DNA of 56,124 nt from a virus (IMGVR_UViG_3300030116_004829:1-56124); one strand, 5' to 3'; counted from the first letter of the stretch, positions 17,457-48,445 are shown. Made by a program: numbers and translations. Notes: a model not told the origin generated them from the sequence alone.

Positions 17457-17585
17457 TTATATTTCCTTTCTCAAAAATGATTTGCCTTGCTGTCTTACTT
17501 TTTTATTGCCATTCTTTTTTAATGACTTCTCCCACTTTCTAGAAGTAGAGTGGATTCTTCCTCGACCTTTTATTCCTTTTGACAT
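17457..17585 (-). CDS. Small basic early protein (42 aa)
   Basis: MSKGIKGRGRIHSTSRKWEKSLKK...; first gene after the leftward promoter, GAGAAAGGA RBS; missed by the ORF track. Confidence 0.65.
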   Translation of the reverse strand: MSKGIKGRGRIHSTSRKWEKSLKKNGNKKVRQQGKSFLRKEI

Positions 17586-17591
17586 TTTCAC

Positions 17592-17693
17592 TTCCTTTCT
17601 CAACCTTATATATACTCTATCTTATTTTGTTTCAAAAGTAAAGGATTATTTTTGATTTTATTAAAAAAAGATTCCTTTAAAAACAATGACTTA
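17592..17693 (-). promoter_or_regulatory. Leftward early promoter-RBS cassette
   Basis: TAAGTCATTGTTTTTAAA box, -35 TTTACT (17642-17637), 17 nt, -10 TAGAGT, then GAGAAAGGA. Confidence 0.8.
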
Positions 17694-17704
17694 ACCCAAC
17701 CACT

Positions 17705-17948
17705 GGTTTCGGTTACCAATTATTTTAAGATTAAGTAACTTTAATAAACGATTGTAAACATTAATATAAGCAGCATTTCGTTACCGAGTAACCGCAAAAG
17801 GTAAGAATTTTTTTATTATTTTTTTATTAAAAAATATTCCCTATATAATAAATTAAAAACCATTGACGTCTATCAAAAAGCTCATTGATCGGTAACGATG
17901 GTTTTTTGGTAACTTGCTTGTTTTAAATAAGAAAGACTGGTAACGCAA
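17705..17948. other. Putative replication origin / iteron-like region
   Basis: Non-coding gap between divergent promoters with 7 GTTAC/GTAAC motifs around an AT-rich core. Confidence 0.5.
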
Positions 17949-17955
17949 AAAAAAC

Positions 17956-17984
17956 TTTACTTTTTTGAAAAAATAAATTAAGGT
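17956..17984 (+). promoter_or_regulatory. Rightward early promoter
   Basis: TTTACT-N17-TAAGGT followed by AGAAAGGA RBS. Confidence 0.7.
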
Positions 17985-18012
17985 TAATTAATTCAGTTAG
18001 AAAGGAATAAAA

Positions 18013-18213
18013 ATGTATATAGCTAAAATTGAACAAAAAAACTTAAATGAGAATTTATTACATGAGTTCGCACACTCTCATGGTTGTACTTATAAAATAT
18101 TAAGTAAAAGTAATTATAAATTTTCATCTGATAATTATAATTATCTTGAAGAATTGGTTCAGCAACTTAGCATTGATCCTAAAAAAGTTATAAGAAAGGA
18201 AAACTATGAATAG
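18013..18213 (+). CDS. Hypothetical early protein
   Basis: 66 aa with strong RBS. Confidence 0.65.
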   Translation: MYIAKIEQKNLNENLLHEFAHSHGCTYKILSKSNYKFSSDNYNYLEELVQQLSIDPKKVIRKENYE

Positions 18214-22480: not shown

Positions 22481-23879
22481 TATTGTTGAAAGCAGTTTAA
22501 AAAGAAAAGTACCACCAGAAAGAATTGCTTATCTTGCTTTTACAAGGAAGGCTGCAAACGAAGCTCAGGAGAGAGCTATGGTGCAATTTGGTTTTGATGC
22601 TGATCGTTTTCCTTTTTTCAGAACTTTGCACTCTCTTGCTTTTAAAAGATTAGGATTGCAAAGAGATGAAGTCATGGGTGATATTCATTATCGTAAAATC
22701 GGCAAAGCTTTAGGAATACAATTTAAAGGTATTTATGATGAAGATTTAGGATTACATGTTGGGGATGGTTTAGGAGATAAATGCTCACGAATTGAATCTT
22801 TGGCTAGAGTTGGTCTTCGATCTATTGAACATCAATATAGTATTAGCAACCAATATGATTTAACATTGCATGCAGTAAAACAATATGCTGAAAGTTTATT
22901 AATTTACAAAAAACAAAATGGTCTTTTAGATTTTACAGACATGCTAGAAAAATATATAGAACCATTACCAATAGATGTTTGCATAATTGATGAAGCACAA
23001 GATTTAAGTTCTTTGCAATATCGCATGGCAATAAAAGCATCTTCAGAAGCTTCTGAAATTTATATAGCAGGTGACGATGATCAAGCTATATTTGGTTGGG
23101 CAGGAGCTGATGTAAATAAATTTTTAAATTTGAAAGGTGACAAAAGAATACTTCCACAATCTTTTAGAGTTCCTATGTCAGTTCATAAATTAGCAACTGA
23201 TGTTGTAAAAAGAATAAGGAAAAGATATGTAAAACCATGGCAATCTAGATTAGAAAAAGGTCGAGTGATTTATGTTTCTGAAGAAAATAATATCGACTTT
23301 GGTGGAGAGGGAACTTGGCTTTGTATGGCTCGTAGTAAATATTTATTAAATAGATTTAAAAAAATTGTAAGGCAACAAGGCTATGCGTATAATTACAATG
23401 GTAAAAGTTCTTTAGATAGCGATGAAACTAAAGCCATAGTGTCTTGGGAAAAAATACGCAAAAATGAATCTATATCTATGGTTGATGCTAAAAATTTAAT
23501 AAACTTTTTTGCTTTTAAAGTAAGATTGGAAAAAAGAGATTCATATAATTATGAGCACATTTGTTCAAAAGAATCGTTTAAAGGTTTTGATTGGATGACG
23601 ATGTTAAGAAGAATAGCACCAGACGAGAGAGAATATTTAAGGTCTTGCATGAGGAATGGAGAAAATTTTAAAAGTAAACCAAGAATAACTATTTCAACAA
23701 TCCATCAAAGTAAAGGTGGTGAAGCAGATAATGTTGTATTGGCTACTGATATGGGTAAATTAAGTTGGGACAGTTTAGGAACAGATGAGGAGAATAGAGT
23801 ATGGTATGTTGCATTGACTCGTACAAAAGAAAATTTGTATCTTATAAGACCGAGAGGATTAAAGTTTTTTTCTTTATAA
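22419..23879 (+). CDS. Superfamily 1 (UvrD/Rep-like) helicase
   Basis: GPPGTGKT, AFTRKAA, TLHS, DEAQD, GDDDQAI, STIHQSKGGE and YVALTR. Confidence 0.93.
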   Translation: MRHVQIILGPPGTGKTTTLLNIVESSLKRKVPPERIAYLAFTRKAANEAQERAMVQFGFDADRFPFFRTLHSLAFKRLGLQRDEVMGDIHYRKIGKALGIQFKGIYDEDLGLHVGDGLGDKCSRIESLARVGLRSIEHQYSISNQYDLTLHAVKQYAESLLIYKKQNGLLDFTDMLEKYIEPLPIDVCIIDEAQDLSSLQYRMAIKASSEASEIYIAGDDDQAIFGWAGADVNKFLNLKGDKRILPQSFRVPMSVHKLATDVVKRIRKRYVKPWQSRLEKGRVIYVSEENNIDFGGEGTWLCMARSKYLLNRFKKIVRQQGYAYNYNGKSSLDSDETKAIVSWEKIRKNESISMVDAKNLINFFAFKVRLEKRDSYNYEHICSKESFKGFDWMTMLRRIAPDEREYLRSCMRNGENFKSKPRITISTIHQSKGGEADNVVLATDMGKLSWDSLGTDEENRVWYVALTRTKENLYLIRPRGLKFFSL

Positions 23880-23883
23880 TCAG

Positions 23884-23971
23884 TAAGTCATTGTTTTTAA
23901 AGAGAAAGAAAATACTTTACTTTTTTATAAAAAAGAGATAGAATAATTTTATTGTTTTATTTGAGAAAGGA
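23884..23971 (+). promoter_or_regulatory. Promoter-RBS cassette
   Basis: TAAGTCATTGTTTTTAAA box, TTTACT(23916)-N17-TAGAAT, GAGAAAGGA. Confidence 0.8.
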
Positions 23972-23979
23972 AATTTAAT

Positions 23980-24609
23980 ATGAATAAAGTTTTTACAATT
24001 GATTTAAAAAGTCTTAATGTTAATGCTTATGTTAGCAGATATGTTGCTAAACAACATGGTAACGGCATGGCAGTATTTGATAATGCCGATGAGCTTTTAG
24101 AAAATCCTAATATGACAACTAATAAAGTTTTAGATGTTTTCAACAAAGTATCTCCTAAGCAAGTTAAAAGATTTGCTGATAGAAAAACTGGTGTTAAAAG
24201 ATTATTTAGTCTTATAAGTGAAACACCACTTACAAAAACTAATTGGGATTCAGGTGAATACAATCAAAAAGTTTTAGCTCAAATGGATGAAGCTAAAAAG
24301 AAATCAGATCAAGTTTTCAAAAAAGCTTGGGACGAGATGGAACTATACAAAGAAAAAGTTCCTACATCTGGACCGAAAGTTTCTAAACCACGAGGTCAGT
24401 TTGCTAATAAAAAGATCCGTTGTTTAGTAGATTGGAATCCTAGAAAAGAAGGCACTCGTGCTTGGAATAACTTTCAATTGTTTTTAGGTCACGGAACAAT
24501 TTCTTATGAAGAGTTTGTAAAGCTCGCAGCTGATCATGGTAGCAATCCTGGTGGTTGTAGAGAAGATCTTGCACACGACTTGAAAAAAGGCAGAGTTGAA
24601 ATTGTCTAA
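23980..24609 (+). CDS. Hypothetical protein (basic; possible nucleic-acid binding)
   Basis: 209 aa; VKRFADRK and C-terminal NPRK.GT...DL.HD..KG. Confidence 0.7.
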   Translation: MNKVFTIDLKSLNVNAYVSRYVAKQHGNGMAVFDNADELLENPNMTTNKVLDVFNKVSPKQVKRFADRKTGVKRLFSLISETPLTKTNWDSGEYNQKVLAQMDEAKKKSDQVFKKAWDEMELYKEKVPTSGPKVSKPRGQFANKKIRCLVDWNPRKEGTRAWNNFQLFLGHGTISYEEFVKLAADHGSNPGGCREDLAHDLKKGRVEIV

Positions 24610-25039
24610 TCGAACTGTAATCCTATGTGATCTTGATGGCACTCTCTCAGACTATTCTGAGAGAGTTCATCTTTATAAAGAAAAAGATTATAAGTCTTTT
24701 AATGAAGCAGGCATAAACGATAAGCCTATTGAAAAAGTTTGCGAGATAATTAGAAATTTACATTCTGATGCTGTTGAAGTTATTGTGATGACAGCTAGAG
24801 ATGAGAGTTGTCGTCGTGATACAGCACTTTGGTTATACAAAAATAAAATACCTTTTGATCAATTGCTAATGAGACCAGAAGGTGATTTTTCTTCAGACCA
24901 AGATTGTAAATCTAAACTATTTGAAATTCATTTTGACATCGAGGATATTTGGTTTGTATTAGAAGACCGAAACTCTGTTGTTGACATGTGGAGAGAAAAA
25001 GGATTAACTTGTTTGCAAGTATCGAGGAGTGATTTTTAA
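24596..25039 (+). CDS. HAD-family phosphatase (PNKP phosphatase-domain-like)
   Basis: DLDGT motif I, TAR motif II, LLMRP, K, EDR..VVDMWR. Confidence 0.88.
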   Translation: MKLSNRTVILCDLDGTLSDYSERVHLYKEKDYKSFNEAGINDKPIEKVCEIIRNLHSDAVEVIVMTARDESCRRDTALWLYKNKIPFDQLLMRPEGDFSSDQDCKSKLFEIHFDIEDIWFVLEDRNSVVDMWREKGLTCLQVSRSDF

Positions 25040-25971
25040 TGAATATATTTGGTGCAGGACTAGCAGGATTATTAGCAGGCAATATGTTTAGAAGATTTAA
25101 GCCAACCTTACATGAAGCTCAAAAAAAGCTTCCTAATAATCATGGTGCTCTTTTAAGATTCAGAACTGATAAAGTTGGGACAGCTTGTGCAATACCTTTT
25201 AAAAAAGTTAAAGTTCAAAAAGCTATAAAATATGATGGCAAGATAATTACAGAACCGAATTTATTTTTGAGTAATTTGTATTCGCAAAAAGTTACAGACT
25301 CAATATTAAGTAGATCTATTAACAACCTTGACCCTGTTGAAAGATATATAGCACCATGGGAACTTATTAATATGATGGCTAAAAATTGTCATATATATAA
25401 AGAATCTCATTTAGATATGAAAGCTATAGAACATCTAAACGAAAATAAAGTCCCAACCATATCAACCATACCAATGCCAGCTCTTATGAAAATAGTTGGT
25501 TGGAAAGACATACCTGAATTTGATTCTAAAAAAATATGGACTCAGAAAGGGAAATTATCTAAACCAGATTGCAATGTTTATCAAACTATTTATTATCCAG
25601 ACCCATTAACTCCATATTATAGGATATCAATTATTGGCAACATTGTTATATCAGAATTTATTATAGAGCCACCAGAAATGATTGGACCACACATATTTAA
25701 TGTTTTGTATGAGGATTTTGGAATAAGGGCAACTGAGATTAATGAGCTAGAACAATCTCATCAAAAGTATGGAAAAATTAAACCAATAAACGAAGCTTTA
25801 AGAAAACAATTTATTTACGAAATGACCACTAAGTATAATATTTATTCTTTAGGTCGTTTTGCAACTTGGAGACAATTGCTGCTAGATGATGTTGTTGAAG
25901 ACTGCCAACACATAGAAAAGTTTATTGACTCTAATTACAATCGGCTAATGCAACAATTAGAAAGGAACTAA
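25039..25971 (+). CDS. FAD-dependent oxidoreductase
   Basis: N-terminal GAGLAG dinucleotide-binding motif with E at the end of beta2; ISTIP and C-terminal LGRFATWR, as in Glf/protoporphyrinogen-oxidase-like flavoproteins. Confidence 0.75.
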   Translation: MNIFGAGLAGLLAGNMFRRFKPTLHEAQKKLPNNHGALLRFRTDKVGTACAIPFKKVKVQKAIKYDGKIITEPNLFLSNLYSQKVTDSILSRSINNLDPVERYIAPWELINMMAKNCHIYKESHLDMKAIEHLNENKVPTISTIPMPALMKIVGWKDIPEFDSKKIWTQKGKLSKPDCNVYQTIYYPDPLTPYYRISIIGNIVISEFIIEPPEMIGPHIFNVLYEDFGIRATEINELEQSHQKYGKIKPINEALRKQFIYEMTTKYNIYSLGRFATWRQLLLDDVVEDCQHIEKFIDSNYNRLMQQLERN

Positions 25972-25972
25972 A

Positions 25973-26620
25973 ATGAGAGTTAAATTAATAAACGCAACTT
26001 CAGATGCTGTTAATCTTTTATTATTTACAAAAAATACTAGACTTATGAATGACGAAGATGCTTACAGTAAAATATCAGCTTGGGATGATGAAAAGAAACA
26101 ATCAGAACTAGACTATATGCTTAATACAATTAGATCGTCTTGGGAATTTATTGACTATACTTTTGATGTAAAAGACGTTACAAGAGGATTTACACATCAG
26201 TTTGTTAGGACTCGTCAAGGTTCATATGCCCAGCAGTCTCAAAGAACTGTTGACATGCAAGGATTTGGGTATTATACTCCTGATAGAATATATAAAGATG
26301 AAACTGCAAATATAATATATGATGATGCGATGCGAATGATAAATGATAAATATCAAGAGCTTAGAAATTTAGGCATCCCAGCAGAAGATGCAAGAGGAAT
26401 ATTACCAACAAATATTCATACGAATATTGTAGCAAAATTCAATTTGAGAACTTTAAGTGAGATGGCAAAATCTAGATTATCTCCGAGAGCTCAAGGTGAA
26501 TATCAAGAGGTGTTTAAATTAATGGTAAAAGAAGTTGTTGCTGTTCATCCATGGGCAGAAGCATTTCTTACACCTAAAGAATGGGCAGCACCTTCAATGG
26601 CGAAACCTTTAAACAAATGA
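25973..26620 (+). CDS. thyX: ThyX-family flavin-dependent thymidylate synthase-like protein (divergent)
   Basis: HQFVRTR....QQSQR, EDARGILP, NLR.L and R....AQGE; canonical RHR reads RTR. Confidence 0.85.
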   Translation: MRVKLINATSDAVNLLLFTKNTRLMNDEDAYSKISAWDDEKKQSELDYMLNTIRSSWEFIDYTFDVKDVTRGFTHQFVRTRQGSYAQQSQRTVDMQGFGYYTPDRIYKDETANIIYDDAMRMINDKYQELRNLGIPAEDARGILPTNIHTNIVAKFNLRTLSEMAKSRLSPRAQGEYQEVFKLMVKEVVAVHPWAEAFLTPKEWAAPSMAKPLNK

Positions 26621-26627
26621 GGCAGTA

Positions 26628-26927
26628 ATGTTTATGAAAAAATACGATCAAGATTTTGTTGACGTTGTACACCATTTAAATAAAAAATATAAAGGTGACA
26701 GAGATAAGACAGCAGAAAAAATGGGTGTTAAAAGAAGAACTATTAGATATATAATTAATAAAAGAAAACCATCAAAATATTATTTATCTGGTGCGAAGCT
26801 TGCGTCAAAAGTTGATAAATTTTTACAACCAGATGCTGTTGTAGAAAGCTTTCATGAACAAAATAGTAAATTAACTATCTGGCAAAGAATAAAAAAACTT
26901 TTAGGAATATTTTACAAAAAGAAATAA
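26628..26927 (+). CDS. Putative HTH DNA-binding protein
   Basis: DKTAEKMGVKRRTIRYII helix-turn-helix pattern. Confidence 0.55.
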   Translation: MFMKKYDQDFVDVVHHLNKKYKGDRDKTAEKMGVKRRTIRYIINKRKPSKYYLSGAKLASKVDKFLQPDAVVESFHEQNSKLTIWQRIKKLLGIFYKKK

Positions 26928-26950
26928 ATTTTAAATGAGAAAGGAACAAA

Positions 26951-27202
26951 ATGAAATACGCTGTGGCATTACTTTTGCTGTTCGCACTTTTTATGTTAAT
27001 AGGTTGCTCAAGCAAAGATGAAGTAGAAATTGTTCATCATAAAGAAATTTACCAGATGGACAGAGAAGAAGTTATAAATGCAATAAATGATTGTAGAAGT
27101 AATGGGTTGAGATCCATTATAAATAAAACGAATATAAAAACTGATTCTGGCAGAGTTCCTATTGTTATCAATGTAACTTGTGCTCCGAGAGGAGATTTTT
27201 AA
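26951..27202 (+). CDS. Putative lipoprotein
   Basis: MK plus hydrophobic stretch plus LIG-C lipobox; two further Cys. Confidence 0.7.
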   Translation: MKYAVALLLLFALFMLIGCSSKDEVEIVHHKEIYQMDREEVINAINDCRSNGLRSIINKTNIKTDSGRVPIVINVTCAPRGDF

Positions 27203-27372
27203 TGATTAGGATAAGAGGAAATGATATTGAGCTTAATGAGAAAAAGATAGCAAGATTGTTCGATGTTACTTCTATACAAAGGCAAGATTTAGAACAGCTT
27301 TTTGATAAAGCGAATAATTATGAAGACGACATTGAAAAAGCATTTCAAGACGGGAAAAGAGAAAATGAATAA
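27202..27372 (+). CDS. Hypothetical protein
   Basis: 56 aa from ATG 27202, coupled to the upstream stop, GAGGAG RBS. Confidence 0.55.
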   Translation: MIRIRGNDIELNEKKIARLFDVTSIQRQDLEQLFDKANNYEDDIEKAFQDGKRENE

Positions 27373-27658
27373 AGATGCAGCAAAAATACTCGAAGATATG
27401 GCAGAAACTTTTAGGGAGAGAAATAAAGTTTATGGCGACAACTATAAAACTGTTGGAGAAGTCATGGTGGCTTTATTCCCCAAAGGTGTCAATCTTAAAA
27501 CTGTTGATGATTATAATGTTTGGCACTTGTTTGAATTAATGGTTGTAAAAATTACAAGATTTGCTAATAATGGTTTGAAACACAAAGATTCAATTCACGA
27601 TGCAGCAGTTTATGCAGCAATGGTTGAATCATTAATAAAAGGAAATAATGATGAGTAA
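27365..27658 (+). CDS. All-helical nucleotide-modification-associated / nucleotide hydrolase-like protein
   Basis: ER..VYG...K..R......DS.HD.AVYA pattern seen in small MazG-like phage domains. Confidence 0.6.
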   Translation: MNKDAAKILEDMAETFRERNKVYGDNYKTVGEVMVALFPKGVNLKTVDDYNVWHLFELMVVKITRFANNGLKHKDSIHDAAVYAAMVESLIKGNNDE

Positions 27659-28322
27659 TATTTTAATAACAGGCACTGGCAAAGGCTTGGGCAAAGCTAT
27701 GAAAGAAGAACTTACTAATCAAGGTCATTTAGTTCATAGTTATAATTTAGAAGATGGCTTTGATATTCGGAAAACTAATTCAATTGCATTCCCATCTATT
27801 GACATATTAATAAATAATGCTGGAATTAATTTAATAGACTGGCTAGAAAATTTTGAGGAAGATATGTGGGATGAAGTTATGGACACGAATGCAAAAGGCA
27901 TATACATGATGACTAAAGCTTGCTTGCCTTTATTAATAAAAAGCAAAGGAACTGTTCTTAACATTGTTAGTAATGCTGCCCACATGCCTATGACTTGTTC
28001 ACTGGCTTACAATGCATCTAAAGGTGCAGCTCATATTATGACTTTGCAGTTAGCTCGTGAGTTGACTAAAAAATATGAAATAACAGTTTTTGGGATAGCA
28101 CCGAATAAATTATCAGGAACTGGTATGAGTGAATCAATAGATAATCAAGTTGTTAAGACTCGTGGCTGGACAAAAAAATATGCTCAAAATTATCAGCTTA
28201 ATGGATTATTAACAGGAAAAGAAACCCCACCAGAAAAAGTAGCAGAGTTTGTTGCTTTTCTACTTCAATCAAAAGAGCATCATCGCTATTTAAGTGGATG
28301 CATATTACCATATGGAGCTTAA
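27648..28322 (+). CDS. Short-chain dehydrogenase/reductase (SDR)
   Basis: TGTGKGLG, NNAG, catalytic S and YNASK (YxxxK). Confidence 0.92.
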   Translation: MMSNILITGTGKGLGKAMKEELTNQGHLVHSYNLEDGFDIRKTNSIAFPSIDILINNAGINLIDWLENFEEDMWDEVMDTNAKGIYMMTKACLPLLIKSKGTVLNIVSNAAHMPMTCSLAYNASKGAAHIMTLQLARELTKKYEITVFGIAPNKLSGTGMSESIDNQVVKTRGWTKKYAQNYQLNGLLTGKETPPEKVAEFVAFLLQSKEHHRYLSGCILPYGA

Positions 28323-28323
28323 A

Positions 28324-28821
28324 ATGAAATTTACTATAGAACAAATCGCTATCTGCCCAAAAAATCCTATCGCTGCAAAAAAGCTTTTAAAAGAAATTGG
28401 TGCAGTTGAATGGGCTGAAGACCATGTTGTTGCATCTGGCACAGTGTTCGGAGAACATGACGTTAAGAATGAAGCAAATTTATCTTTTAATTACGATATC
28501 TTTGCAGGTAAAGAATTCGAGATTTTAAATTATACTTCTGGAAAAAATTGGGTTGATGAAACTGGTGGTTTACAAATATCTAAAGAAAGGAACACAGTCA
28601 GCCATTTAGGAATGCATTGTTCGGCAGAAGAATTATTAAAATGGAGAAAGTTTTTTAAAGATAGAAATATAATCGTAGCTCAAGAAGTTTTTACAGAATC
28701 TCATACTAATCCTGTAATCGCAGGCAAGAGATCTTACAACTATGTAATTTTTAATACGAAGCCAATATTAGGAGTTGATTTGAAATTTATAGTCAGGATA
28801 AATAAAGATGATAGTGTTTGA
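28324..28821 (+). CDS. VOC/glyoxalase-fold protein
   Basis: IEQIAI...EFEILNY...SHLGMH...YVIF.T...G..LKFI, a repeated beta-alpha-beta-beta-beta pattern. Confidence 0.6.
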   Translation: MKFTIEQIAICPKNPIAAKKLLKEIGAVEWAEDHVVASGTVFGEHDVKNEANLSFNYDIFAGKEFEILNYTSGKNWVDETGGLQISKERNTVSHLGMHCSAEELLKWRKFFKDRNIIVAQEVFTESHTNPVIAGKRSYNYVIFNTKPILGVDLKFIVRINKDDSV

Positions 28822-29344
28822 TCTAGAAACAACAGGATTGCCTAAAGCTGAAGGCTCAGACTTAGATTTACAACCTAGAATAATTGAGTTCGGTGCAATA
28901 AGATTTACCGATGGTAATTTCGAAGAATATGATAGGTTAGAATTTATGTGTAATCCTGGACACAACCTAGATCCTAAAATTAGTAAAATAACAGGCATTA
29001 GTGACGAAGATTTAAAAAAAGAAAAACCTTTTATTTATTATTATAAAGATTTATGTAAATTCTTTCTTGGCGAAACATCAATGGCTGCACACAATTTACC
29101 TTTTGATAGAAAGATTTTAAGATTCGAATTAGAAAGAATAGATAAACTTACAAAATTTCCTTGGCCAGTGGATCATATATGCACAGTTGAAGTTGGTCAA
29201 GGTGTTTGGGGTAAAATGCGTAAATTAAGTGAAATATATAAAGAGATCACTGGAAAAGAACATAAAGGTGCTCACAGATCTTTAGTTGATGTAGAAGCAA
29301 CAATAGAAATATTAAAGTGGTATAAAAAAGAAGGACACATTTGA
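28808..29344 (+). CDS. dnaQ: DEDDh 3'-5' exonuclease (Pol III epsilon-like)
   Basis: DLETTG, AHNLPFD and HRSLVD. Confidence 0.92.
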   Translation: MIVFDLETTGLPKAEGSDLDLQPRIIEFGAIRFTDGNFEEYDRLEFMCNPGHNLDPKISKITGISDEDLKKEKPFIYYYKDLCKFFLGETSMAAHNLPFDRKILRFELERIDKLTKFPWPVDHICTVEVGQGVWGKMRKLSEIYKEITGKEHKGAHRSLVDVEATIEILKWYKKEGHI

Positions 29345-32151
29345 TGTTGCATTTAAGAGCCAGAACTGAATACTCTTTTAGAAAAGCATATGGTCCAATA
29401 AATAATTTAGTTGGCTTGGCAGGAGAGGCAATGGGCATTGCTGATGCTGGAACTTGGGGTCATGTGGCTTTTAACAATGCTTGTAAAAAAGCAAATGTAA
29501 AGCCAATATTCGGAGTTGAGATAGGTGTTGTTGAAGATGCAAAAGAAAGGTCAAAGCAACCAATAAATTACATGGCTTTTATAGCAAAAAATAATTCAGG
29601 CTTGGCAGAGATTTATCAACTTGTAACTAAAAGCACTTCTAAAGAAAATTTTTATTATATACCAAGAATAAGCTATTATGATCTTTTCGAAGTATCTGAA
29701 AACGTAATTATTTTAACAGGAACTAATCCTAATGTTGGGTTAATACCTTTAACTAAAAAGAAGCATATTTATTTCGAGATAAATCCAATGACAAGTAAAA
29801 AGAGCTTTCTTTGGGCAAAAGATAAGCGTTTTCAATTTGTGGCAACTTCAGATAATTACTATCCAAAAGTTACAGATAAAAAAGCTTATGAAGTTTTAGT
29901 TGGAATGAATAGGACAGAAAGAACTAAACCAATGCACCTATTAAATGAATATGAGCTAGTTGATTGTGTTCCTTGGATACCAGATGAAGCAATGCAAATG
30001 ACTTACAAAATTGCTGACGAATGTAATGTTGATTTACCTATTGCTAAAATGATATCTTTTCAACCGAGCAAGACATTAGAAGAAATGTGCATAGATGCAG
30101 CAGAATCAAGAGGAATAGATCTAAAAAATAAAGTTTACAAGGATCGTCTGAGAAGAGAAATAGACATGATTGCAAGTAAAAATTTCGAAGATTATTTTTA
30201 CGTCATTGCTGATATGATTAATTATGCTAAACAACATATGTTAGTTGGTCCAGCAAGAGGATCTAGTGCTGGTTCTTTAGTTTGCTATTTAATAGGAATT
30301 ACAGATATAGATCCTATAAAGTTTGATTTATTATTCGAAAGATTTATAGATATCACCAGAGCTGATCTTCCTGATATAGATATAGATTTTCAAGATGACA
30401 GAAGAGAGATGGTTTTCGAATATTTAAGACAAAAGTATGGTGCAGAAAAAGTTGCCCATTTAGGAACAGTAAGTAGATACAAAGCTAAAAGCACAATCAC
30501 TGAAGTTGCTAAAGAACTAGGAATACCAGCTTGGGAAGTCAATGATTTAAAAGGTGCTATAATAGAAAGAAGTGGTGGTGATGCTCGTGCTGCCATGTGT
30601 ATTATGGATACATTTAATGATTTAGATATTGGCAAAGAAGTTTTAAAAAAATATCCACAAATAAAAATAGCAGAAAGAATGGAAAATCATGCTAGACATT
30701 CTGGAGTTCATGCAGCAGGAATTATAATAACAGAAAAGCCAGTGAGTGAATATTGTTCTGTTAGTGCTCAAACTGGTGCAGCACAAATAGATAAATACGA
30801 TGCTGAAAGTTTAAATTTATTAAAAATAGATGCTTTAGGATTAAGAACACTTTCTGTATTAAATGATGTTTTAGAGCAAGTCAATTGGACAAAAGAAAAA
30901 ATTATTAATTTCCCTTTAGAAGATCAAAAAGCTTTTGATGTCTTAAATAAAGAAAGGCATGCAGGCATTTTTCAATTTGAAGGCTATGCATTACAATCTT
31001 TAACACGTCAAATGAAAATAAGTAATTTTGAGGATATTGCTTCCATAACGGCATTGGCTCGTCCTGGACCATTAACATCTGGTGGTACAACAAAATATAT
31101 AAGACGGAAGATAGGTGAAGAGCCTATTACATATTTGCACCCAATGGCAGAAAACATTACTAAAGTAACATTTGGTGTTGTTGTTTATCAAGAACAAGTT
31201 ATGACTATTGCTCGTGACATTGGTAAATTAAGTTGGGAAGATGTTTCTCAGTTGCGTAAAGCAATGAGTAAATCTTTAGGTGAGGAATTTTTTGATCGTT
31301 ATTGGAAGAAGTTTAAAGTTGGTGCTGAAGAGCAAGGAATACCAGAAGACGAATCAATAAAAATATGGAAGAATATTAATACAATGGGATCATGGGCATT
31401 TAATAGATCGCATGCTATTGCTTATGGCTTGGTCAGTTATTGGTGTTGTGTTTTGAAAAGTCGTTTCCCATTAGAGTTTGCTGCAGCATGCCTTAGGAAT
31501 GTAAAAGACGAAGATCAAGGTGTAAAACTATTAAGAGAAGTTGTTAAAGAAGGATTAGGATATAAGCCATATGATAAATATAAATCAGAATTAAATTGGT
31601 CTGTACAAGATGGTGAGTTGATCGGAGGACTTATAGGTATCAAAGGTGTTGGTCCAAAAATGGCAGAAGATATTATAGAAAGAAGAAAATTTGCACAACC
31701 TTTAACACCTCGTCAGGAAAAACTTTTAGATCAGGGAGAGACTCCATTCGATGATATTTTCGAATGTGAAAGAAGATTTGGTCATATTAAAAAAGATCCA
31801 TCAGCTCATAATATTAAAACACCTATAACAGACATTCATAATTTAGAAGCTGATAATCCTGGAGAGTTTGTTGTTTTCGGCAAGCTTGTAGAGAAAAACC
31901 TTAGAGACTTAAATGAAGCTGTCAATTTAGCTAAAAGAGGTGGCAGGAGAGCTGAAACTAATAATCTATGGTTAAACATGAAATTTGAGGATGATACTGG
32001 TCCAATCCTCGCAGGAATAGATAGATGGAAATATCCAAAGCTAGGAAAACCAATAGTTGAAGATGGTAAAATTGGTGATTGGTATTTGTTAAAAGGTCAA
32101 ATTAGAAAGGGATTTAGGAAGCTTAACATAGATAAATGGAGAAAACTTTAA
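29341..32151 (+). CDS. dnaE: DNA polymerase III alpha subunit (family C)
   Basis: PHP domain (HLRARTEYS), RGSSAGS, PDIDIDF, HAAG, KIDALGL, FNRSHA..Y, HhH and OB domains. Confidence 0.95.
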   Translation: MMLHLRARTEYSFRKAYGPINNLVGLAGEAMGIADAGTWGHVAFNNACKKANVKPIFGVEIGVVEDAKERSKQPINYMAFIAKNNSGLAEIYQLVTKSTSKENFYYIPRISYYDLFEVSENVIILTGTNPNVGLIPLTKKKHIYFEINPMTSKKSFLWAKDKRFQFVATSDNYYPKVTDKKAYEVLVGMNRTERTKPMHLLNEYELVDCVPWIPDEAMQMTYKIADECNVDLPIAKMISFQPSKTLEEMCIDAAESRGIDLKNKVYKDRLRREIDMIASKNFEDYFYVIADMINYAKQHMLVGPARGSSAGSLVCYLIGITDIDPIKFDLLFERFIDITRADLPDIDIDFQDDRREMVFEYLRQKYGAEKVAHLGTVSRYKAKSTITEVAKELGIPAWEVNDLKGAIIERSGGDARAAMCIMDTFNDLDIGKEVLKKYPQIKIAERMENHARHSGVHAAGIIITEKPVSEYCSVSAQTGAAQIDKYDAESLNLLKIDALGLRTLSVLNDVLEQVNWTKEKIINFPLEDQKAFDVLNKERHAGIFQFEGYALQSLTRQMKISNFEDIASITALARPGPLTSGGTTKYIRRKIGEEPITYLHPMAENITKVTFGVVVYQEQVMTIARDIGKLSWEDVSQLRKAMSKSLGEEFFDRYWKKFKVGAEEQGIPEDESIKIWKNINTMGSWAFNRSHAIAYGLVSYWCCVLKSRFPLEFAAACLRNVKDEDQGVKLLREVVKEGLGYKPYDKYKSELNWSVQDGELIGGLIGIKGVGPKMAEDIIERRKFAQPLTPRQEKLLDQGETPFDDIFECERRFGHIKKDPSAHNIKTPITDIHNLEADNPGEFVVFGKLVEKNLRDLNEAVNLAKRGGRRAETNNLWLNMKFEDDTGPILAGIDRWKYPKLGKPIVEDGKIGDWYLLKGQIRKGFRKLNIDKWRKL

Positions 32152-32178
32152 ATTTTTTTAAAAAAATGAAATTAACGC

Positions 32179-32230
32179 TTTACTTCTCTGGCCAAATAAG
32201 ATAGAGTGTATATATAAGGTTGAGAAAGGA
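32179..32230 (+). promoter_or_regulatory. Promoter-RBS cassette
   Basis: TTTACT-N17-TAGAGT; its 3' ~37 nt are near-identical to the reverse complement of 17592-17627. Confidence 0.8.
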
Positions 32231-32239
32231 AATATAAAA

Positions 32240-32737
32240 ATGGAAAAGCATAACCCAAAAACAAGATTAATAACTGACTGGACTGGAAAATCAAGAGTTA
32301 CATGGTGTGGTCCATTTTCAGTTGCAACTGTTGCTGGTATACAATATGAGCCAGCATACCAAATACTTAAAGGAATACGTGGCAAGCGTCATTGTAAAGG
32401 TGTTAGCAATGATAATATTAAAAAAGCTTGTCATGAGTTAGGTGTAAAAGGCAAGTGGCACAAATCTAAAAAAAGAACTGTTCTTAGAAAATTTGTTAAA
32501 GAAAATCTTGAGTCTGGTAAAGTTTACATCGTTCAAATAACAAAACATGTTTTAGTTATCGACACTCGTGATTGGACAACAATCGACAATCAAGTTCCTG
32601 AGTGGAGAGCAATGGATGCATCTCATCACTGGGCTAAAAAACTTGTTCACAATTTCTTTGAAGTTTACAATCCTAAATTTTCTGAGCAAATCGAAAAGCA
32701 ATTAGACTTTGATTTTGCTTTACAAAGTGTTGCCTAA
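32240..32737 (+). CDS. Hypothetical protein, papain/C39-like Cys-His pattern
   Basis: WCGPFSVA...HVLVID...D; C-terminal QLDFDF. Confidence 0.55.
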   Translation: MEKHNPKTRLITDWTGKSRVTWCGPFSVATVAGIQYEPAYQILKGIRGKRHCKGVSNDNIKKACHELGVKGKWHKSKKRTVLRKFVKENLESGKVYIVQITKHVLVIDTRDWTTIDNQVPEWRAMDASHHWAKKLVHNFFEVYNPKFSEQIEKQLDFDFALQSVA

Positions 32738-33189
32738 TGATTAGTGCAGCAGCAATGTGTCTAGCTTTGAATATTTACTTCGAAGCTAGAAATCAACCAA
32801 TCCAAGGACAAATAGCAGTCGCTGAAGTCACTCTTAATCGGGTGGCTTCAGAACAATGGCCAGATACAATTTGTGGTGTTGTTAAACAGTCTGGTAAAAA
32901 TGGTTGTGCTTTTAGTTGGTATTGCGATAAAAATTCTAACACACCTAAAGAAAAACAAGCATTTGAAAAATCAAAAAAATTAGCTGAAATATTAATAAAT
33001 AATAAAGTTTCTGTTGTTGGTGAAAAAGCAACTTATTATCACAATGATTCTATAACTCCATATTGGGCAAAAAATTTTTATGTTATTAAAAAGATAGGAA
33101 ACCATATATTTTACTCAGAAAAATTATGGGTAAGCGAACCACTGCAAAGACCAGAAAAATTAATCATAAACGAAAAAAATTATAAGTGA
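32737..33189 (+). CDS. Cell wall hydrolase (SleB/Hydrolase_2)
   Basis: CLALNIYFEAR.Q...GQ.AVA.V.LNRV...P.TICGVV.Q...FSW...IG.HIFY. Confidence 0.9.
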   Translation: MISAAAMCLALNIYFEARNQPIQGQIAVAEVTLNRVASEQWPDTICGVVKQSGKNGCAFSWYCDKNSNTPKEKQAFEKSKKLAEILINNKVSVVGEKATYYHNDSITPYWAKNFYVIKKIGNHIFYSEKLWVSEPLQRPEKLIINEKNYK

Positions 33190-33292: not shown

Positions 33293-33901
33293 ATGAACAT
33301 CGATTTAGTAGAACATATTCAAAATGAAAAAGCTTTAAAAGTGAAAAAATTTGACCAAGAAAATCCTGGTTTAATTGATGCCTTGAGGGAAATTGTTTCT
33401 TGGAATTCTTTTGCTGCTTCTTTAGTAAATCAGTATGATTCTCGTGGTACACTTTCTGAAAAGCAAACAGGTGCTGCAATTGCCATGCTTATGAAAATTT
33501 CAAAAAATGGCAAAAAGACTTTGGATTCAGTAGATTATCGTAAAGTCAAAGAAGTTCTTGACAATGCTTTTTCTGACGGCATCAACAATCCTAAGTTACG
33601 TTTCGGTGACATAGTTCTTTCTCGTGCTGGAGATAATGGTGTTAACAAAGGTGCTGTTTACATTAAAGTAGATGGTGAATATGCTGGCAAGTTGCATGGT
33701 GGTTATTTCTTACCAATCAAAATGAATCAGTTATGGCGTCAGGAAACATTCAAGAGATTGAAAGTTATACTCAATGACCCTCTTGAGCAAGCAGTTGCTT
33801 ATGGTCGCAAATTTGGAAGTTGTTGTGCTTGTGGCAGGACTCTTACGAATCACGCTAGTATTGAAGCTGGTATTGGTCCAATATGTGGAAGTCGTTTCTA
33901 A
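33293..33901 (+). CDS. DUF6011-like Zn-finger protein
   Basis: C-terminal CCACGRTLT...SIEAGIGPIC; N-terminal FAASL..Q...G.LSEKQ. Confidence 0.75.
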   Translation: MNIDLVEHIQNEKALKVKKFDQENPGLIDALREIVSWNSFAASLVNQYDSRGTLSEKQTGAAIAMLMKISKNGKKTLDSVDYRKVKEVLDNAFSDGINNPKLRFGDIVLSRAGDNGVNKGAVYIKVDGEYAGKLHGGYFLPIKMNQLWRQETFKRLKVILNDPLEQAVAYGRKFGSCCACGRTLTNHASIEAGIGPICGSRF

Positions 33902-48092: not shown

Positions 48093-48436
48093 TATCCACC
48101 ATTTAATGTTGTTAAATCATTCCAAATTTTTGTAGCATGAGTTTCTGGAACGAAATTTTCACTTTCTCCTTCTGCATTTATTTGTTTCCATTTCATAGCA
48201 TTGTTCATGTCTGTAAGATAAATTATTAAATCATCTTTACTGGCGATCTCTCCTTCAGAACCAGATATATCTGCACCATCATCTGCTATTCCAAGAAAAA
48301 TATTATCTCTTGGACTTTTTGTACTATTATCTTTAACAGGATACATACCACCTGTTCCTTGAAGCACACCAAACTTTAGAAAAGTTGGAATTGTACCTTC
48401 GGCTGTTAATCTATATTTAACTACTTTATATGCCAT
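48092..48436 (-). CDS. Hypothetical protein (possible tail-fibre chaperone)
   Basis: KY.L...GTIP N-terminus; directly downstream of the fibre gene. Confidence 0.6.
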   Translation of the reverse strand: MAYKVVKYRLTAEGTIPTFLKFGVLQGTGGMYPVKDNSTKSPRDNIFLGIADDGADISGSEGEIASKDDLIIYLTDMNNAMKWKQINAEGESENFVPETHATKIWNDLTTLNGG

Positions 48437-48445
48437 TTTTACTAC

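Follow-up and report, generated by a model that had tools for sequence, protein, structure and literature searches.

A three-gene, phage-only cassette in the replication operon of a marine phage, with a candidate DNA- or precursor-directed accessory function

The window is the whole stretch of DNA that was analyzed, 56,124 nucleotides in length (IMGVR_UViG_3300030116_004829). It is the complete genome of a 56-kb virulent marine phage related to the PB1/Wifcevirus group, and the part described here is its replication-and-precursor operon. An earlier sequence-only reading had called nine genes, all of which were upheld. They lie on the plus strand and are tightly packed or overlapping. The family and fold assignments of that reading (HAD, flavoprotein, ThyX, SDR, VOC, DnaQ, and DnaE) were also correct. 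The features are as follows.

24596..25039, + strand: HAD phosphatase of the T4 Pnkp 3'-phosphatase type with a DLDGT motif (Pfam HAD_PNKP, 5.2e-29; phrog_415/505, "polynucleotide kinase")
25039..25971, + strand: FAD-dependent oxidoreductase, 310 aa, with a UGM/PPO/amine-oxidase fold (phrog_4828, 2e-70; model; Foldseek)
25973..26620, + strand: ThyX, phage subfamily (Thy1, 5.3e-39; NCBIfam equivalog TIGR02170, 102.1 against a cut-off of 87.9)
26628..26927, + strand: small ORF of 99 aa, outside the module (present in 1/50 loci)
26951..27202, + strand: predicted lipoprotein of 83 aa, outside the module (placement varies among relatives)
27365..27658, + strand: DUF6378-like protein, type A, cassette gene 1 (Pfam DUF6378, 2.6e-5, below cut-off; C-terminal part of phrog_4889, 1.4e-33)
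27648..28322, + strand: short classical SDR, cassette gene 2 (adh_short, 4.3e-32; phrog_3142)
28324..28821, + strand: VOC-fold enzyme, methylmalonyl-CoA epimerase/glyoxalase I-like, cassette gene 3 (alignment; AlphaFold-type model; Foldseek match to 3gm5)
28808..29344, + strand: DnaQ-type 3'-5' exonuclease (RNase_T, 3.5e-24; phrog_192)
29341..32151, + strand: DnaE-type DNA polymerase III alpha with PHP, NTPase, finger, and HhH regions (DNA_pol3_alpha, 3.7e-71, and further domains; phrog_405, 6e-252)

The operon has three layers. The first contains ordinary lineage-wide genes, namely, ThyX, the DnaQ proofreader, and the DnaE polymerase. The second contains two lineage-wide enzymes, the small FAD oxidoreductase and the HAD phosphatase. 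The third is a three-gene, phage-only cassette of type-A DUF6378, SDR, and VOC. The two small ORFs were not conserved in relatives. Their matches were weak and below cut-off, to DNA-binding families for the 99-aa ORF and to lipoprotein families for the 83-aa ORF.

ThyX keeps the dUMP-binding Arg, Ser, and Gln when aligned to ThyX of T. maritima. Three His of the T. maritima enzyme are replaced by F, T (RTR for RHR), and R. The motif is RTR in 29 of 33 relatives, RNR in 3, and RHR in 1. The RTR type is clade-wide and includes the PB1-like phages.

The flavoprotein has an N-terminal GAGLAG motif, a C-terminal GRFATWR..LDD motif, and at least 10 invariant Arg/Lys residues. It had no Pfam match, and its best PDB sequence match reached only an E value of 0.18. 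Its AlphaFold model (pLDDT 85.7) matched the UDP-galactopyranose mutase (UGM) 4dsg (Z 19.9), protoporphyrinogen oxidases (18 to 19), amino-acid and monoamine oxidases (about 16), and renalases (14 to 15). It shares with these the FAD-binding fold, the GxGxxG motif, and a C-terminal GR..W/Y..D, but it is shorter than UGM and PPO and belongs to no Pfam family. Its nearest named cellular clusters are Amino_oxidase proteins of 311 to 354 aa. The Pnkp type of the HAD suggests nucleic-acid 3' ends no less than free nucleotides as its target.

The longest ORF of the DUF6378-like gene starts at 27302. A start at 27365 is more likely (the Atlas record begins at residue 22). The type A motif is WHLFEL...KxTR...DSIHD. 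This is the helical protein that had been called nucleotide-hydrolase-like. It matched neither MazG nor DUF1599, so that label is unsupported. The SDR contains TGTGKGLG, NNAG, and an Asn-Ser-Tyr-Lys tetrad with YNASK. Its substrate loop is highly conserved, with invariant alignment columns.

The longest VOC ORF starts at GTG 28294, and 28324 is the likelier start. The protein had no sequence match in Pfam, PHROG, NCBIfam, or PDB. Its AlphaFold model (pLDDT 90.9) matched best the methylmalonyl-CoA-epimerase-like 3gm5 (Z 14.9, rmsd 2.5 A over 137 residues; Foldseek E 1.6e-7), with Z 10 to 11 to the S. coelicolor and human epimerases and C. acetobutylicum glyoxalase I. Like that branch of the superfamily, it is a single chain of two beta-alpha-beta-beta-beta modules. 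It differs from the branch in its phage restriction, its lack of sequence-level matches, and its own invariant set (Q7, E64, E66, H94, H98, C99, H127, R136, K154, and R158). The invariant His, Glu, Gln, Arg, and Lys suggest catalysis on an anionic substrate. The family comprised 1209 clusters at E<=0.001, with a Pfam domain in none of the 120 listed, and a scan of 185,579 species genomes gave matches to just 2 small contigs. From these scans the family appears large and phage-restricted.

The order flavoprotein-ThyX-HAD-DUF6378-[SDR-VOC]-DnaQ-DnaE recurs across 50 tabulated loci. It was kept in 45 fetched IMG/VR viral contigs and 7 cultured-phage loci. Cultured phages with this order include PB1-like phages (Pbunavirus), Wifcevirus, Kylevirus, and Carpasinavirus. 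This linkage is far beyond chance. The sequence-only reading had expected linkage of flavoprotein, ThyX, HAD, SDR, VOC, and DnaE in relatives and had named its absence as evidence against itself; the linkage is conserved, so that objection falls. Most relatives have the HAD either between ThyX and DUF6378 or as a fusion with DUF6378 (fusions in PB1, WFC, Kyle, Carpasina, and loci L044 to L050). In the cultured genera the fused gene is named "polynucleotide kinase/phosphorylase," helicases follow DnaE, and no record gives a function for the flavoprotein, DUF6378, or VOC gene. SDR and VOC occupy the same slot in Wifcevirus, Kylevirus, and Carpasinavirus as in the window. The window differs from these modules in its marine origin, in an amino-acid identity of only 35 to 60%, and in having separate HAD and DUF6378 genes with the HAD shifted upstream of the flavoprotein.

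SDR and VOC were either both present or both absent. SDR was directly upstream of VOC in 26/26 fetched VOC loci, and DnaQ came next in all 22 SDR-VOC loci whose contigs extend further. Among cultured phages, 51 records carried the SDR (E<=1e-20), all of them together with VOC, and their organism tally equals that of the 55 VOC records once 4 Microbacterium phages are left out. Both genes were present in 4/4 BASEL Wifcevirus isolates. Mass spectrometry of vB_Eco4M-7 and ECML-117 lysates identified both proteins (excerpt of PMC7048862).

Between sister phages, the type-A DUF6378-SDR-VOC block is exchanged for a lone type-B DUF6378 gene. Loci L018 (with the cassette) and L020 (without it) share 88 to 96% amino-acid identity in the helicase, flavoprotein, ThyX, HAD, DnaQ, DnaE, and SNF2 but only 49% in DUF6378. 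Their DNA homology breaks exactly at the DUF6378 start and returns at the VOC end. L008 shows the same pattern against L006 and L007. L008 and L018, which both have the cassette, are 82 to 88% identical in the cassette and 61 to 83% in the backbone. In metagenome contigs the DUF6378 gene is joined straight to the DnaQ start (28807/28808). In both lineages that lack the cassette, the only two that are independent, DUF6378 has long branches. The gene anatomy and the cassette behavior are very probably as described here.

Nucleotide-level base replacement is exemplified by T4 (hmC), SPO1 (hmU), PBS2 (dU), and SP-15 (dihydroxypentyl-U). Such systems group a homologue of thymidylate synthase with a phosphatase and a phage-encoded polymerase, as the window does. 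The sequence-only reading had proposed such a route, in which a C5-substituted dUMP is made by the RTR-type ThyX and given its side chain by the SDR, VOC, and flavoprotein; the HAD takes the canonical nucleotide out of the pool, and DnaE inserts the modified one instead of T. The conserved linkage, the loss of the three His in this ThyX subfamily, and the presence of a HAD and a polymerase are consistent with it. Against it, pairs of phages with and without SDR and VOC have ThyX 94 to 95% and DnaE 93% identical, and ThyX retains the residues that bind dUMP and scores above the equivalog cut-off. The complete genome contains no homologue of dNMP kinase (thymidylate kinase or dNK), dNTPase, dUTPase, deaminase, MazG, or ThyA. 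The earlier caveat that no dNMP kinase was recognized thus extends to the whole genome, and the supposed depletion of a canonical nucleotide has no enzyme among those found. In Microbacterium phage Sparcetus, an SDR-VOC-DUF6378 set adjoins DnaE and is preceded by an FAD-type oxidoreductase and a HAD phosphatase (homology to those of the window is confined to cofactor and catalytic motifs), and ThyX lies about 8 kb away. No VOC homologue was found in any Bacillus phage record, which leaves the analogy to SP-15 without sequence support. The folds, families, and linkage of the sequence-only reading stand; its ThyX product and adapted DnaE are not supported, and the route as a whole is highly unlikely.

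Resistance to restriction in vivo can also come from sources other than base modification, such as anti-restriction proteins. Wifcevirus resists restriction (excerpt of PMC11990801). PB1-like DNA is cut by EcoRI, HindIII, Sau3A, and AluI, with EcoRI and HindIII cutting incompletely (excerpt of PMC3634792). The resistance and the incomplete digestion favor base replacement. The cutting argues against it, as PB1-like phages share the RTR-type ThyX, flavoprotein, HAD-DUF6378, DnaQ, and DnaE. Virion DNA of vB_Eco4M-7 amplifies well by PCR, and the phage can be rebooted from PCR fragments that carry no modification (excerpt of PMC11074155); modification is therefore unnecessary for starting infection. 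Thymidine hypermodification via 5-hydroxymethyl-dU in phages M6, ViI, and PaMx11 resembles the window in its accessory enzyme sets adjoining nucleotide and replication genes, its combinatorial and mobile gene content, and an FAD-dependent enzyme, which in PaMx11 (gp47) acts on DNA (excerpt of PMC8989533). Unlike those pathways, the window has no ThyA-type dUMP hydroxymethylase, and its cluster proteins included no recognizable 5-hmdU DNA kinase or amino-acid:DNA transferase. The excerpted text of PMC8989533 does not mention SDR, VOC, or DUF6378 ("short-chain" and "glyoxalase" gave 0 matches). A search for known DNA-modification enzyme families found none, including GT2 glycosyltransferases.

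The small-molecule chemistry of SDR, VOC, and amine-oxidase-type flavoproteins is generic, and a metabolic or detoxifying role alone fits them equally well. Amine-oxidase-fold enzymes have a folate link. The flavoprotein could support ThyX, either by an amine-oxidase-type demethylation that supplies a one-carbon unit for methylene-tetrahydrofolate or by renalase-like flavin/NAD(P)H redox upkeep. SDR and VOC would then remove or convert the resulting reactive aldehydes, and the products would be plain dTMP and plain DNA. Throughout the lineage the flavoprotein lies next to or near ThyX (362 cultured phage records hold it), its fold is that of amine oxidase and renalase as much as UGM, and its nearest named cellular clusters agree. 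The ThyX equivalog score, the cutting of PB1-like DNA (excerpt of PMC3634792), and the cassette-less sister phages also favor this role. However, unlike host-derived metabolic genes, the VOC family yielded no cellular counterpart in the scans, and the Sparcetus set adjoins DnaE far from ThyX. Detoxification also leaves unexplained why the cassette swaps along with a DUF6378 allele for which fusions to a Pnkp-type phosphatase occur elsewhere. We regard this role as possible, at rather low odds.

The HAD family also suggests end healing or sugar-damage repair attached to the replisome. The HAD would remove 3'-phosphates, DUF6378 would be a nucleic-acid-binding partner replacing the kinase domain, SDR and VOC would deal with sugar remnants that carry aldehydes at abasic or nicked sites, and the flavoprotein would act on the same lesions. 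The "polynucleotide kinase/phosphorylase" annotation of relatives is consistent with this, as are the DNA ligase just downstream of DnaE in Ss1 and PVA7, the module abutting DnaQ-DnaE in all tabulated loci, and the nicks in PB1-like genomes (excerpt of PMC3634792). However, the cluster of the window encodes no nuclease, glycosylase, or ligase, and near-identical phages rarely differ by the presence or absence of repair functions. To our knowledge, no SDR or VOC enzyme acts on DNA ends. This function is unlikely.

VOC-fold resistance proteins and carbonyl reductases offer analogues for a chemical-defense role, in which VOC, SDR, and flavoprotein might bind or inactivate a DNA-damaging or replication-blocking small molecule near the replisome. 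The VOC fold and predicted active SDR tetrad fit this, as do the presence/absence behavior typical of defense-related genes and the occurrence of the cassette in soil actinobacterial, marine, and enteric phages. The best VOC structural match, however, is of the enzyme type (epimerase/glyoxalase I) and not the binding-protein type, its invariant residues suggest catalysis, and no link to any known compound was found. By analogy such a role is conceivable and most unlikely.

Our best explanation, with a probability of roughly 40%, is a three-layer operon with a swappable accessory cassette that is putatively directed at DNA or a precursor. The HAD, DUF6378, SDR, and VOC would form one pathway whose substrate is phosphorylated, bears a carbonyl group, and is linked to DNA synthesis. 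As an accessory, counter-defense-type function, the cassette would most likely modify phage DNA or a precursor, either partially or after replication. A wholesale replacement of a base by way of ThyX and DnaE is not what is proposed. Taken separately, the DNA-modification function is tentative, and we hold it to be the less probable outcome. The cassette is a candidate for a DNA- or precursor-directed accessory function, possibly a new DNA modification, and the same cassette occurs in cultured E. coli phages that resist restriction enzymes.

The window was rated 100% complete (the whole IMG/VR record of 56,124 bases), and the G+C content was about 33%. A plus-strand block spans roughly 18-36 kb, with minus-strand blocks on both sides. 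The primase, the helicases, and the studied genes all lie within the plus-strand block. GC and AT skew flip sign at 17500-18200 and at about 36000, coinciding with the gene strand switch at the borders of this replication block. The block also encodes an endolysin-like cell-wall hydrolase at 32737-33189 (phrog_938, 3.3e-23), between DnaE and an SNF2 helicase. A 202-aa protein at 33293-33901 has a C-terminal DUF6011 domain (7.8e-13; phrog_4046, 8.5e-41) and is kept in some relatives, with or without the SDR and VOC genes alike.

The genes at 24596-32151 lie head to tail, and overlaps of a few bases are frequent. They encode, in order, a HAD phosphatase, a flavoprotein, ThyX, two small ORFs, a DUF6378-like protein, an SDR, a VOC protein, DnaQ, and DnaE.

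24596-25039, plus strand: HAD phosphatase (Pfam HAD_PNKP, 5.2e-29; 101.7 bits against a cut-off of 27.6)
26628-27202, plus strand: two small ORFs of 99 aa and 83 aa (predicted lipoprotein), not conserved
directly 3' of the VOC gene, to 32151, plus strand: DnaQ and DnaE (Pfam and PHROG matches)

A promoter and terminator scan of 23800-32400 gave the same counts as in shuffled sequence. In our reading, held with a probability of about 0.85, this anatomy combines a regular replicase and dTMP supply with a mobile enzyme cassette specific to phages. The cassette consists of a type-A DUF6378 gene, the SDR gene, and the VOC gene.

The HAD protein carries DLDGT at residues 12-16, which is the DxDGT nucleophile motif; profile and motif together place it in the T4 Pnkp type. 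In the window its gene lies upstream of the flavoprotein; almost every relative has it between ThyX and DUF6378. The usual place is filled in the window by the 99-aa ORF and the 83-aa lipoprotein ORF. This looks like a local rearrangement.

Cultured phages share the arrangement. The annotated order flavoprotein, ThyX, HAD-type or fused HAD-DUF6378 protein, DnaQ, DnaE was found in Cronobacter phage Ss1, Vibrio phage PVA7, Pseudomonas phage E215, E. coli phage WFC, Pantoea phage Kyle, and Xanthomonas phage Carpasina. In WFC, Kyle, and Carpasina, the slot used in the window likewise contains the SDR and a VOC gene. We compared 45 IMG/VR loci and five cultured loci with the window proteins. The linkage noticed in the sequence-only reading is real: gene order was identical throughout these loci, and SDR and VOC were always jointly present or jointly absent. 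The SDR gene was immediately upstream of the VOC gene in all 26 fetched VOC loci, and DnaQ came next in all 22 whose contig extends further. Among cultured records, 51 encode the SDR (E<=1e-20) and 55 encode VOC. The organism tallies match except for four Microbacterium phages with a more distant SDR, one of which was checked.

Marine viral contigs show that the cassette is exchanged as a unit. L018 and L020 have a backbone that matches at 88-96% (helicase 90, flavoprotein 90, ThyX 95, HAD 88, DnaQ 96, DnaE 93, and SNF2 91%). Only L018 carries the cassette, and the DUF6378 proteins match at 49%. L008 has SDR and VOC and L006 and L007 do not; the flavoprotein, ThyX, and HAD match at 89-94% and DUF6378 at 50-52%. 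L008 and L018 both carry the cassette. Their backbone matches at 61-83%, against 88% for DUF6378, 82% for SDR, and 84% for VOC.

DNA homology between L018 and L020 (82-86%) breaks off at the opening bases of the DUF6378 gene and restarts at the end of VOC, with a 1.47-kb block in place of a 0.31-kb block. Contigs from three metagenome runs fuse the DUF6378 gene straight to the start of DnaQ (27516 to 28807 and 27373 to 28808); these joints were placed at 85% likeness, so they belong to relatives, and depth and mismatches there describe related strains only. In a tree of the DUF6378 domain, the cassette-less lineages sit on long branches (marine clade, 1.82 with 100/100 support; PB1-like E215, 4.64), which are two independent cases only. 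The swap unit is type-A DUF6378, SDR, and VOC, exchanged for a lone type-B DUF6378. DUF6378 is fused to HAD in PB1, WFC, Kyle, Carpasina, and several contigs. Because of this fusion and the co-transfer, we infer that HAD, DUF6378, SDR, and VOC act in one pathway.

The VOC protein (165-175 aa) matched no family in Pfam, PHROGs, or NCBIfam. The longest ORF, from 28294, probably starts too early; relatives favor an ATG at 28324, just past the SDR stop. The predicted model (pLDDT 90.9) has paired beta-alpha-beta-beta-beta modules forming a cup. It matches 3gm5 (Foldseek E of 1.6e-7 and TM of 0.65/0.70; VIA-align Z of 14.9, rmsd of 2.5 A over 137 residues). The next-best structures, at Z of 10-11, are epimerases and one glyoxalase I. 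On this model, the orphan falls among the VOC proteins of the methylmalonyl-CoA epimerase or glyoxalase I kind. An alignment of 21 sequences from related viral contigs has invariant Q7, E64/E66, H94/H98, and H127. As placed from alignment and model, these lie on the strands expected for a candidate metal quartet. A family profile had no match among PDB sequences at E<=10.

The VOC family contains 1,209 clusters at E<=0.001, and among the 120 listed none has a Pfam domain or a name besides "hypothetical." A scan of 185,579 species genomes retrieved 2 small contigs only; it used two peptide patterns, which distant relatives would escape.

The SDR matched adh_short (4.3e-32) and phrog_3142 ("FabG-like"). 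It is a classical SDR with TGTGKGLG, NNAG, N81, S108, Y121, and K125, most of them invariant across 18 sequences. The DUF6378-like protein had a Pfam E of 2.6e-5, under the cut-off, and corresponds to the C-terminal portion of phrog_4889 ("polynucleotide kinase/phosphorylase"). Its longest ORF, from 27302, probably starts too early; an Atlas record favors the Met at residue 22, base 27365. A joint fold prediction of SDR and VOC with the DUF6378 partner scored 0.00 (mark, 0.32) and points neither way.

The DUF6378 protein had been called nucleotide-hydrolase-like. The acidic motifs EExxE...ExxD are the hallmark of MazG and other all-alpha NTP pyrophosphohydrolases. The only invariant acidic residues of the DUF6378 protein are D96 and D100, and MazG and DUF1599 profiles found no match in the genome at E<=10. 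We therefore dropped the label. A DUF6378 profile against PDB sequences gave one match, at chance level. End healing or sugar-lesion repair can be considered as a role of the gene set; we regard this as unlikely.

The 310-aa flavoprotein matched no Pfam family and did match phrog_4828 ("unknown function"; 2e-70). Its model (pLDDT 85.7) falls, by VIA-align and Foldseek, into the FAD-enzyme group of UDP-galactopyranose mutase (UGM), protoporphyrinogen oxidase (PPO), amine oxidase, and renalase. UGM 4dsg scored highest (Z of 19.9), followed by PPOs (18-19), amino-acid and monoamine oxidases (about 16), and renalases (14-15). The UGM family was not matched in Pfam; the best PDB profile match was 4dsg at an E of 0.18, and its Z is about 1 above PPO. 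Among named cellular clusters in the ESM Atlas, those closest to it (score, 0.92) consist of Amino_oxidase proteins 311-354 aa long. The earlier calls of a VOC protein and a Glf-like flavoprotein were thus correct as folds, and neither fold fixes a substrate. In the VOC alignment and in an alignment of 20 flavoprotein sequences from related viral contigs, both proteins are rich in invariant basic residues, which may hint at an anionic substrate.

The flavoprotein was present in 362 cultured phage records, 292 of them from Pseudomonas phages, mostly PB1-like. It reaches well past PB1-like myoviruses. Eight Rhizobium phage records encode it (RHph_Y65 is 206.8 kb), as do 40-kb phages of Ralstonia, Vibrio, and Cronobacter.

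ThyX passed its family profiles (Pfam Thy1, 5.3e-39 and 134.4 bits against 24.8; TIGR02170 equivalog, 102.1 against 87.9). The ThyX motif is RHRxxSxxxxSxR. The window reads RTRQGSYAQQSQR, which is not an exact match: Thr replaces the central His, and both Arg, both Ser, and the last Arg are retained. In an alignment with Thermotoga maritima ThyX, the motif region retains its Arg, Ser, and Gln columns, and two later Arg are also kept. Three T. maritima His, which belong to the flavin/folate side, align with Phe, Thr (of RTR), and Arg. These replacements are common to the clade and not specific to the window. Among 33 members, including PB1-like E215, WFC, and Kyle, the motif is RTR in 29, RNR in 3, and RHR in 1; the first position is never His, and the third is Arg in 32.

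The sequence-only reading had ThyX make a C5-substituted dUMP, its side chain built by SDR, VOC, and flavoprotein, for incorporation by DnaE. The observation of a linked set of unusual enzymes stands, and the ThyX-to-DnaE route is unsupported. Sister phages keep ThyX (95%) and DnaE (93%) nearly unchanged with or without SDR and VOC. Because both serve cassette-bearing and cassette-less phages in this way, neither appears adapted to a cassette product. Nor are modification genes and polymerase inherited as an obligate set: the backbone-matched pairs differ by the swap of the DUF6378-SDR-VOC block.

The window genome also differs in content from a nucleotide-level base replacement system. The absence of a dNMP kinase, suspected earlier, was confirmed: searching the complete genome with Thymidylate_kin and dNK profiles gave nothing at E<=1, and the cluster proteins matched no kinase family. 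A host kinase could still serve. The complete genome contains no MazG, DUF1599, dUTPase, or dCMP deaminase, and it does encode the Pnkp-type HAD phosphatase, which may or may not act on a canonical nucleotide. Thymidine hypermodification based on 5-hmdU has a ThyA-type dUMP hydroxymethylase, and the window genome had no Thymidylat_synt match at E<=1. It encodes no GT2 glycosyltransferase. Among the ten cluster and ten flanking proteins, Pfam and PHROG scans found no 5-hmdU DNA kinase and no amino-acid:DNA transferase (aGPT-Pplase). A likeness to Bacillus phage SP-15 had been suggested; we rejected it, as Bacillus phage records contain no homologue.

PB1-like phages share ThyX, flavoprotein, HAD-DUF6378, and DnaE with the window. 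DNA of PB1-like P1-14pyo was cut by EcoRI, HindIII, Sau3A, and AluI; EcoRI and HindIII digestion was incomplete, and the genome of a relative is nicked along its length (PMC3634792). The sister-phage swap, this digestion, and the missing precursor enzymes make it very unlikely that ThyX and DnaE replace T throughout the genome.

The cassette may instead act on DNA or on a phosphorylated precursor, possibly as a new DNA modification, a reading we hold tentatively. It is always wedged between nucleotide genes and replicase, it is phage-only in the scans made, and it is a present/absent allele. Counter-defense genes often behave as such alleles. The cassette was found in all four BASEL Wifcevirus isolates. 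Wifcevirus phages resist nearly all restriction systems tested, with no known mechanism (PMC11990801; PMC11074155). The resistance extends over types I to III, a single sequence-specific exception apart, and this pattern looks more like base modification than a general inhibitor. Mass spectrometry of lysates from two Wifcevirus phages detected the VOC and SDR proteins (PMC7048862). Counting against a DNA-related function, the DNA of vB_Eco4M-7 can be amplified by PCR, and PCR fragments suffice to reboot this phage (PMC11074155).

A literature search found no chemical analysis of DNA from a cassette-bearing phage, which also counts against a DNA-related function, and no description of what this gene set does. 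The accessible text of PMC9151335, PMC11165191, PMC11538084, and PMC6454146 contains nothing on DNA digestion or modification. In a more specific but doubtful form, DUF6378, SDR, and VOC, with the UGM-like flavoprotein and the Pnkp-type phosphatase, would make an undescribed DNA modification unlike the hmU, hmC, deazaguanine, and aminoadenine routes. It would protect the genomes of Wifcevirus phages and of a large group of marine phages. In a bolder variant, the His-less ThyX found across the clade would release a reactive or hydroxymethylated intermediate, elaborated by the cassette and partner enzymes.

Metabolic support or aldehyde handling around ThyX is another doubtful possibility. Detoxification of a DNA-damaging compound is scarcely probable. 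SDR, VOC, and HAD could also form a folate/pterin reductase, riboflavin, sugar-nucleotide, or viperin-product detoxification set; no result discriminates among these ideas.

A similar set recurs independently in Microbacterium phage Sparcetus (Krampusvirus; L053). It encodes an FAD-type oxidoreductase, a HAD phosphatase, an SDR, a VOC homologue, and a DUF6378 protein directly before a split DnaE and a glycosyltransferase. Identity to the window was 32% for SDR, 37% for VOC, and 41% for DUF6378. Its ThyX is about 8 kb beyond the SDR-VOC-DUF6378 run; the match, at 48397-49077 of the Sparcetus record, sits in a 467-aa open frame and may be fused to another domain. The flavoprotein profile aligned with Sparcetus gp55 over the GxGxxG stretch only (hhalign probability, 49%), and the two HAD proteins aligned over the DxDGT stretch only (BLASTP). 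We do not claim orthology for either, since the likeness is confined to cofactor and catalytic motifs.

Parts of the 24596-32151 stretch were found in marine or seawater metagenome contigs from 10 studies. The public-run matches comprised 20 rows, each covering part of the stretch and all from assembled contigs. Two rows labeled freshwater metagenome match a third to half of the sampled words and are no evidence of habitat.

The cassette is an obvious candidate for the restriction resistance of Wifcevirus. This compact, mobile, and phage-only set adjoins the replicase and is expressed at the protein level. E. coli K-12 derivatives serve as hosts for Wifcevirus phages, and PCR fragments are enough to reboot such phages (PMC11990801; PMC11074155). 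With natural near-isogenic pairs that have and lack the cassette, the question is directly testable, and in E. coli laboratory phages. If the cassette does not modify DNA, the results still delimit the function space of an unannotated family of over a thousand sequence clusters. If it does, SDR, VOC, UGM-like flavoprotein, and DUF6378 would be a new enzyme repertoire for DNA modification biology. This would bear on phage-therapy relatives (Pbunavirus) and on the sequencing and cloning of such phages.
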